This document shows, in pieces, positions 6,645-6,738 of a stretch of DNA of 44,223 nucleotides. The translations under genes and the position numbers were made by a program. Location: the sequence record PQ571293; one strand, 5' to 3'. Under the pieces are notes generated by a model that did no database searches, had not been told where the DNA came from, and saw only the letters and a list, made by a program, of their open reading frames with translations. Every line of letters begins with the position of its first letter. Position 1 is the stretch's first letter. Origin of the DNA: Escherichia phage EM1.

Positions 6645-6738
6645 GTACATCCCGCCCAATCCCCTTATATAATCCATTTAGACGCGTAGGGCGCGTCTGA
6701 TGCGCTCTGATGGTCAGACGCATATGCAAGGGGATTTT

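Follow-up and report, generated by a model that had tools for sequence, protein, structure and literature searches.

Background

In Escherichia coli, mRNAs of the ompA 5' UTR type carry 5'-terminal stem-loops that stabilise the transcript, as is known from the literature on RNase E and RppH. Among phages, the nut sites of lambda consist of boxA and boxB and are bound by N, and autogenous translational control is known for gp32 and RegA of T4. The pac region of phage SPP1 is arranged as pacL-pacC-pacR around the start of gene 1. The putL and putR sites of phage HK022 direct factor-independent antitermination and measure about 70 nt; their two stems are long and irregular, and a triplex is present (PMC9378689). 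They act in cis, suppressing termination by way of the beta' zinc-binding domain of RNA polymerase, their two stem-loops are formed by the first nucleotides after an early sigma-70 promoter, and at putL a sigma-dependent pause is reported at a -10-like element (PMC9378689). Jerseyvirus packaging is reported to be headful with pac initiation, as determined by PhageTerm; no site position was mapped (PMC10783031).

The locus compared here with these systems lies directly upstream of the small terminase gene (terS) in the window, which is the whole 44,223-nucleotide stretch of Escherichia phage EM1 (PQ571293). A sequence-only reading had described it as a pair of overlapping palindromes. Comparison with relatives indicates that the conserved unit is instead an RNA of the + strand, in the sense of terS, which forms two adjacent stem-loops (SL1 and SL2). 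Its most likely function, to which a probability of roughly 0.45 is given, would be to stabilise and insulate the packaging mRNA as a structured leader at its 5' terminus.

Sequence collection, alignment and folding

From IMG/VR, fifty loci coding for close relatives of TerS were retrieved, and a pattern scan added more. The pattern scan of metagenome DNA was loose and returned mostly chance matches, 18 distinct leader sequences being left after filtering. A covariance model (R1) was built from a gapless alignment of Kagunavirus and Jerseyvirus sequences, and its 79 matches, 27 of them distinct, were aligned (A4); this alignment is fitted to the model. Alignments A7 (SL2) and A8 (SL1) are gapless, loop-anchored and not model-fitted, with the aligned segments centred on the loops. 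RNAalifold did not recover the structure from a plain MAFFT alignment (A1) and returned a meaningless consensus (-1.6 kcal/mol), because the Dhillonvirus rows and some of the Cornell-like ones were not in register; for this reason the model-fitted and the gapless loop-anchored alignments were used to test the structure. For the folding of individual sequences, promoter-to-ATG variants were used, with the RNA started 7 nt after the -10 box.

Genome context

The phage of the window is a Kagunavirus-like siphophage, and 1 kb around the site matched 179 phage records at 82-93% identity (Escherichia Kagunavirus and Salmonella Jersey-type phages). The features of the locus and of the genes that follow it are listed in Table 1.

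Table 1. Coordinates of the features upstream of and within the packaging unit (positions in the window)
Feature	Position	Strand	Sequence or basis
Intrinsic-terminator-like hairpin, closes upstream early block	6622-6644	+	AGCCCTC/GAGGGCT stem 6622-6628/6633-6639, then TTTCT
Sigma-70-type promoter-like site	6644-6673	+	-35-like TGTACA 6644-6649, 18-nt spacer, -10 TATAAT 6668-6673
Segment complementary to the SD region 6728-6736	6658-6666	+	AATCCCCTT; in promoter spacer, read-through RNA only
SL1	6680-6698	+	AGACGCGU / GCGCGUCU, loop AGG 6688-6690; extendable by U6679-G6699
SL2	6700-6723	+	AUGCG-C-UCUGA / UCAGA-CGCAU, loop UGG 6711-6713, bulged C6705
Shine-Dalgarno (SD) AAGGGGA	6728-6734	+	Sequence; predicted unpaired in a transcript from 6680
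terS start ATG	6739-6741	+	ATG with ribosome-binding site
terS, small terminase, 169 aa, first gene of operon	6739-7248	+	Annotation of relatives
terL	7238-8509	+	Pfam Terminase_6N and Terminase_6C
portal	8522-10003	+	3' of terL

Terminator and promoter-like site

The terminator that had been reported at the end of the early block is present, with its hairpin at 6622-6639 and the T-rich tail behind it. Jerseyvirus relatives have AGCCCGC...GCGGGCT at this position, which is a compensatory change. A simple scan of 5500-7500 returned one terminator-like site (6622-6639 and the T run) and one promoter-like site. The latter, TGTACA-18-TATAAT, scored 10/12 and has the hexamers and spacing of a sigma-70 promoter, and the frequency of such promoter matches, taken alone, is not above chance in the window. 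The TATATAAT box that had been placed at 6665-6672 was found one nucleotide further on, at 6666-6673.

Across the relatives, every lineage has TATAAT or TACAAT as its -10 box, and TAnAAT was kept in 43 of 43 distinct variants as well as in Eiauvirus and Tsm2. The spacer sequences and the upstream genes vary across lineages while the key -10 bases are kept, a pattern of conservation that fits a sigma-70 promoter. The -35 or TGn element and the spacer drift in sequence at constant spacing; Cornell-like phages and Tsm2 have TTGCCT-17-TATAAT, and the Dhillonvirus promoter has the extended -10 element TGTTATAAT (TGnTATAAT). The earlier proposal of a candidate late promoter was borne out to this extent, the promoter-like site lying directly 3' of the terminator and the key -10 bases being kept in every related lineage.

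For nearly all lineages the start of SL1 falls 7-9 nt 3' of the -10 box; for Eiauvirus it falls 4-5 nt 3' of it. Promoters of E. coli are expected to initiate about 7 nt downstream of the -10 box, and SL1 would therefore begin at +1 or +2. In the window its first base is the seventh nucleotide past the -10 box, which would place the start of transcription at about 6680. The constant spacing between the -10 box and SL1 is hard to explain unless the hairpin must be at the transcript start or must form right after it.

Four deposited Dhillonvirus genomes (L236, L239, L241 and L243; SO-1, SSL-2009a, EP23 and relatives) begin exactly at the TATAAT upstream of terS. This may be a real end, or the convention of an earlier record that was copied.

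Structure of the two stem-loops

Perfect 7-bp inverted repeats with loops of 3-8 nt were counted in the window, where 44 were found (15.9 +/- 4.4 in shuffles); a lone perfect repeat of this length is not rare. The predicted fold is moderately unusual relative to shuffled sequences (z = -3.3 for 6650-6760 and z = -2.6 for 6680-6738). Since such repeats are common and the z values modest, the single sequence settles nothing. It is from comparative evidence that the site can be judged to exceed chance, and this holds for only part of what had been observed earlier.

The part that held is the first 7-bp inverted repeat, AGACGCG/CGCGTCT at 6680-6686/6692-6698, which is a conserved and covarying helix in relatives. 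The 8-bp repeat that had been described as overlapping it is present in the letters (GCGTCTGA at 6693-6700 and TCAGACGC at 6714-6721), but it does not form a conserved helix and shows no covariation. The second pairing that is conserved is a different one, the SL2 helix at 6700-6704/6719-6723 and 6706-6710/6714-6718, which has no overlap with SL1. The second palindrome owes its existence to a repeat: AGACGC, from the 5' arm of SL1, is found again within the 3' arm of SL2, and this is so only in Kagunavirus. TCTGATG is repeated as had been noted (6696-6702 and 6706-6712), as a by-product of the two helices.

SL2 ends 4 nt 5' of the ribosome-binding site, which is unpaired in the predicted fold of an RNA started at 6680; over 40 variants, its mean unpaired probability was 0.69. 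The two hairpins were the minimum-energy fold in all but two of the 43 distinct variants from the first four lineages.

Distribution among relatives

The leader layout was found in Kagunavirus, Jerseyvirus, Cornellvirus-like phages, Serratia phage Tsm2, Dhillonvirus and Eiauvirus, down to a TerS identity of about 31%. Kagunavirus leaders are nearly identical to that of the window. In Jerseyvirus, SL1 is AGACGCUC-AGG-GGG[C/U]GUCU, and in the Cornell type it contains two adjacent wobbles (GAGGUGCGC/GCGCGUCUC). The Dhillonvirus layout consists of TGTTATAAT, then AGAUGGC-AGG-GCCGUCU, then AUG-U-UGCCGA-UGG-UCGGCG-CAU, and that of Eiauvirus eiAU-183 consists of GGGCGGGCC-AGG-GGUCCGCCU followed by UGGA-UGG-UCCA. 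Kagunavirus has UCUGA/UCAGA as the upper stem of SL2. Its place is taken by UAUGA/UCAUA in the Jersey and Cornell types, the Jerseyvirus change being a C-G to A-U exchange, by GCCGA/UCGGC in both Dhillonvirus and Tsm2, and by UGGA/UCCA in Eiauvirus. In contrast to these varied stems, the loops of the carriers are WGG (SL1) and UGG (SL2) with fixed closing pairs, and the GAUGGUC of SL2 is invariant in all lineages, one Kagunavirus variant excepted.

The Cornellvirus-type phages (FSL SP-049, vB_SenS_SE1 and vB_STM-ZS) have upstream genes that could not be aligned with those of the window, and they keep the whole layout of terminator, promoter, two hairpins, SD and ATG. Between the window and the Cornell-like phages, 46 of 58 positions are identical in the leader and 280 of 434 in the terS DNA, and the TerS proteins are 31% identical. 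No leader was present upstream of the most distant TerS homologue examined, that of Pectobacterium phage Taid.

In one unverified record (L247, Salmonella phage PSP2-22), a Cornell-type leader and terS come immediately 3' of a gene annotated as terminase large subunit, and no terminator separates them from it; this odd gene order may be an artefact of assembly or rearrangement.

Covariation, strand and molecule

In A4, 98.2% of 498 cells pair (87.7 +/- 0.8% in column shuffles) and changes on both sides occur in 11 of the 19 pairs (4.1 +/- 1.1 in shuffles), none of 500 shuffles reaching any of the observed measures; the sequences represent about 6-8 lineages, and the counts are not independent events. 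When the partner was slid by 1-3 columns as a control, pairing fell to 18-53%. The alignments that were not model-fitted gave the same picture. For SL1 in A8 (7 pairs, 13 distinct sequences, all lineages), where the loop positions had been picked by a script maximising pairing, 100% of 91 cells pair as against 72.9 +/- 3.1% after shuffling, both sides have changed in 6 of the 7 pairs, and 0 of 500 shuffles reached the observed pairing. The loop-anchored upper stem of SL2 pairs in 98.3% of cells (77.1 +/- 3.7% in shuffles; 0/500). The second palindrome (6693-6700/6714-6721, +) was tried as a helix in the same manner and rejected, with 81.7% of cells paired as against 82.0 +/- 0.6% in shuffles and two pairs broken in 13-14 of the 27 distinct sequences.

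G-U pairs make up about 53 of the 498 cells of A4, or about 10%; on the other strand they are A-C mismatches, and in a duplex palindrome they are mismatches as well. The fold of the + strand is the more stable in all 27 distinct sequences (mean -21.1 versus -16.8 kcal/mol). The changes are compensatory and of the G-U kind, and the folding strand is the sense strand of the downstream gene, as in a structured RNA leader. These comparisons show base pairing, its strand and its conservation, and they point to the two stem-loops of the + strand RNA as the conserved unit rather than to a protein-binding DNA palindrome.

The same observations bear on two readings in which the site acts as DNA. In one, the late promoter would be under the control of a dimeric regulator bound to the palindromes. 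The palindromes, over about +1 to +44 from the predicted start, do occupy a classical position for a repressor operator, but complementarity is conserved where the sequence of the half-sites is not, the two palindromes have unrelated sequences, and the half-sites are not enriched elsewhere in the genome (AGACGCG 12 versus 7.9 expected, CAGACGC 11 versus 6.4 expected). The position is wrong for an activator. The activator site that had been proposed earlier is not supported, as the palindromes lie 3' of the -10 box and their arms change with complementarity kept, often via G-U. A DNA operator of any kind is considered highly improbable.

In the other reading, TerS would recognise the conserved motifs as its pac site, beside its own gene. 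Like the pac region of SPP1, the locus is at the 5' end of the small terminase gene and overlaps its promoter region; Jerseyvirus, as described above, is reported to package by the headful mode with pac initiation, and the leader co-occurs with one TerS family. Unlike SPP1 pac, it shows base-pair covariation on one strand and not conserved duplex boxes. Boxes of that kind co-varying with TerS specificity were not found in the alignments, the arms keeping their pairing and not their sequence, and compensatory changes with G-U pairs on one strand are the signature of a folded single strand rather than of a protein site in duplex DNA. The leader is also kept where TerS is only 31% identical, and a constant distance from the -10 box would be meaningless for pac. 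No sub-molar pac fragment was reported for phage K47 and no termini for Kagunavirus fBC-Eco01. The pac reading is accordingly disfavoured, on account of the covariation pattern and of leader conservation across TerS proteins with 31% identity, and it would be a surprising outcome. Deposited genome starts were also tried as a proxy for pac and rejected; those near the site are scattered and follow annotation habits and convention.

Proposed function of the leader

Tentatively, the locus is read as follows. A host-type (sigma-70) promoter directly 3' of the early-block terminator would start transcription of the packaging unit at about 6680, and the first 44 nt of the RNA would fold at once into SL1 and SL2, with the ribosome-binding site 4 nt further on and the terS start after it. 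SL1 is probably at the 5' end of the terS-terL-portal mRNA. Since it would leave at most 1-2 unpaired 5' bases, protection from 5'-end-dependent decay is proposed: the leader would shield this mRNA from decay by the RppH and RNase E route, and as a self-contained fold it would keep the ribosome-binding site single-stranded. It is from this predicted arrangement that we infer a stabilising and insulating role.

The predicted arrangement would resemble the ompA type in having a stable hairpin 0-2 nt from the mRNA 5' end followed by an accessible ribosome-binding site, and, like a stabiliser of that type, it would act in cis with no dedicated factor. It differs in having two hairpins with almost invariant triloops and in being conserved across several phage genera, and its start is placed from the -10 spacing only. 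A plain 5' stabiliser requires neither a second hairpin nor invariant loops, which counts against stabilisation as the sole explanation. The invariance of the loops points to sequence-specific recognition, which is outside the scope of a stabiliser; the invariant loops (WGG and GAUGGUC) suggest an additional binding partner, which could be RNA polymerase or a protein that regulates translation, such as TerS.

An outer helix that would silence read-through RNA was also considered, and its significance is doubtful. It would pair an anti-SD, either AATCC(C)TTT 3' of the -10 box or the complementary segment in the promoter spacer (6658-6666), with the ribosome-binding site. The helix is seen in the predicted fold of 6650-6760, and it was inconsistent across lineages, being strong in some and weak or absent in the window's proximal copy and in L038, L003, L141 and L245. 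The predicted accessibility of the SD falls from 0.69 to 0.29 in read-through RNA, and this drop was largely reproduced with shuffled upstream sequence; the effect is largely compositional and not consistently above what composition gives.

Binding of a protein to the loops leads to the RNA operator reading, in which a phage or host protein, TerS being the obvious candidate, would bind the NGG triloops and set the amount or timing of packaging proteins by autogenous translational control. The loops and their closing pairs are almost invariant (Y-WGG-G and GA-UGG-UC) while the stems drift, SL2 stands only 4 nt from the ribosome-binding site, and the leader co-occurs with one homologous TerS family (six carrier groups) and is absent at its most divergent homologue, that of Taid. 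Against this, TerS differs by up to 69% between lineages with the same loops, and there is one conserved copy per genome, so that no regulon is visible. The translational operators of phages (T4 gene 32, the RegA targets and the MS2 coat-protein hairpin) are likewise structured RNAs by a gene start with sequence-specific loop bases, but the hairpins of the leader exclude the ribosome-binding site and start codon of terS, and the binding protein is only hypothetical. An RNA operator is thought unlikely, if still worth keeping in mind; it is compatible with the stabilising leader and not exclusive of it.

Two observations were made on the occurrence of the loop sequences elsewhere in the window. 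R1 matched 1778-1816 (+), within an ORF at 1584-1949, as AUCCGC-AAGG-GCGGGU, AC, AUCUCUGA-UGG-UCAGAGAU (18.9 bits, E about 0.004), and this look-alike shares the exact 13-mer TCTGATGGTCAGA with the terS leader. It was rejected as a second copy of the leader, as it lies inside a coding ORF and relatives do not keep its second hairpin in their homologous gene; the match is probably due to chance. The SL2 loop heptamer GATGGTC occurs at 12 sites on both strands, compared with 3.9 +/- 2.0 expected (0 of 100 shuffles), although a few excesses of this size are expected by chance among all heptamers. The sites are scattered, mostly coding and not clustered at terS (for example 1803, 6709, 8749, 9043, 13593 and 25945).

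If the partner were RNA polymerase, the nascent two-hairpin RNA could bind it in the manner of HK022 put, or bind a phage factor in the manner of lambda N and boxB, and cause read-through of terminators in the packaging and head operon. The leader would then be a compact antitermination or polymerase-modifying RNA that heads the packaging operon of virulent enterobacterial siphoviruses, acting alone or via a small phage protein able to recognise the NGG triloops. It has the place and general form of putL, with two cis stem-loops that start a few nucleotides from the predicted transcription start, and a terminator-like hairpin (10014-10029) lies downstream inside the operon, with a counterpart in Jerseyvirus. 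In our own reading, the invariant GATGGT also agrees with a -10-like element at its two key bases, having A at position 2 and T at position 6. Unlike put, with its length of about 70 nt, long irregular stems and triplex, the leader measures 44 nt and has regular stems, simple 3-nt loops and no triplex, which sets it apart from put in structure. R1 had no match in HK022 24-34 kb (best E = 2.1), a segment taken to include the early-promoter region by gene order, put not being annotated in the HK022 record. The likeness to lambda nut is that of a small hairpin in a phage operon leader with a conserved loop that a protein could read; it does not extend to the loops, which are triloops here and not GNRA-like pentaloops, or to boxA, as no boxA-like sequence is conserved and the CGCTCT of the window, inside SL2, is not kept in relatives. 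An N-like protein was not identified. In addition, the operon is short (about 5 kb), and partial internal terminators are common without antitermination. Antitermination by this RNA seems improbable, whether factor-independent or with the help of a phage protein, and we would not expect a polymerase-modifying role of the compact kind outlined above. Were it true, the leader would carry transcription through the terminator-like hairpins in the packaging and head operon.

Novelty and use

No Rfam 15 family overlapped the leader at E values up to 10 in the window or up to 1 at four homologous loci, and neither a description of the leader nor transcript mapping, transcription start, RNA half-life or expression data for these phages were found in the searchable literature. 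Structured 5' leaders are a well-known kind of element; the present motif appears to be undescribed. Its occurrence in six lineages, its strong covariation and its invariant loops make it a clean candidate for a new RNA family. Kagunavirus, Jerseyvirus and Dhillonvirus are common candidates for therapy and biocontrol, and some are engineering chassis; for these, a conserved promoter and structured leader before terS would offer the first concrete handle on the timing and dosing of packaging proteins. The promoter and leader together would make a compact, portable expression element.

Start of terS and neighbouring features

The terS frame is open from 6700. The ATG with a ribosome-binding site is the one at 6739, which, judged from sequence, is the true start. 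The upstream AUG at the base of SL2 (6700) is in frame with terS in Kagunavirus and Jerseyvirus, is followed by a stop after 9 codons in Cornell-like phages, is out of frame in Dhillonvirus and is absent in Eiauvirus. A coding extension of the TerS N terminus or a conserved uORF was considered and rejected, as the substitutions are not codon-like and the SL2-base AUG is not a conserved start. In many deposited genomes, among them several GenBank records and L007, L013, L021, L035, L047 and L232, terS, or even the genome record, opens at the SL2-base AUG, or in Dhillonvirus at the AUG just 3' of it. Sister lineages show that neither AUG is conserved as a start, so records that begin terS at position 6700 or its equivalents probably have the wrong start, a frequent error that comparison of the leader corrects.

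Upstream of the terminator, a 33-aa ORF (6516-6617, +) begins at an ATG (6516) that overlaps the stop of the preceding gene (TGATG) and ends 4 nt 5' of the terminator stem. Between 6517 and 6643, 106 of 127 positions are identical to Jerseyvirus, and this ORF probably represents a final early-block gene that had gone unlisted. Two genes upstream, a 78-aa protein (6083-6319, +) has a sub-threshold match to NinH (PF06322, E = 8.6e-6, below the gathering score), and its counterpart in Salmonella phage vB_SenTO17 is annotated as NinH-like.

Downstream, the terminator-like hairpin at 10014-10029 reads AGCCCC-GAAA-GGGGCT and lies 3' of portal, in the gap before the next gene; a Jerseyvirus hairpin is at the same position. 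A near-identical bidirectional terminator hairpin, AAGGCCCC-N3-5-GGGGCCTT, stands at three operon boundaries (11581-11601, 19443-19462 and 31097-31116), and a hairpin of this type is also found 3' of the Jerseyvirus portal gene (L008, 6262-6282).
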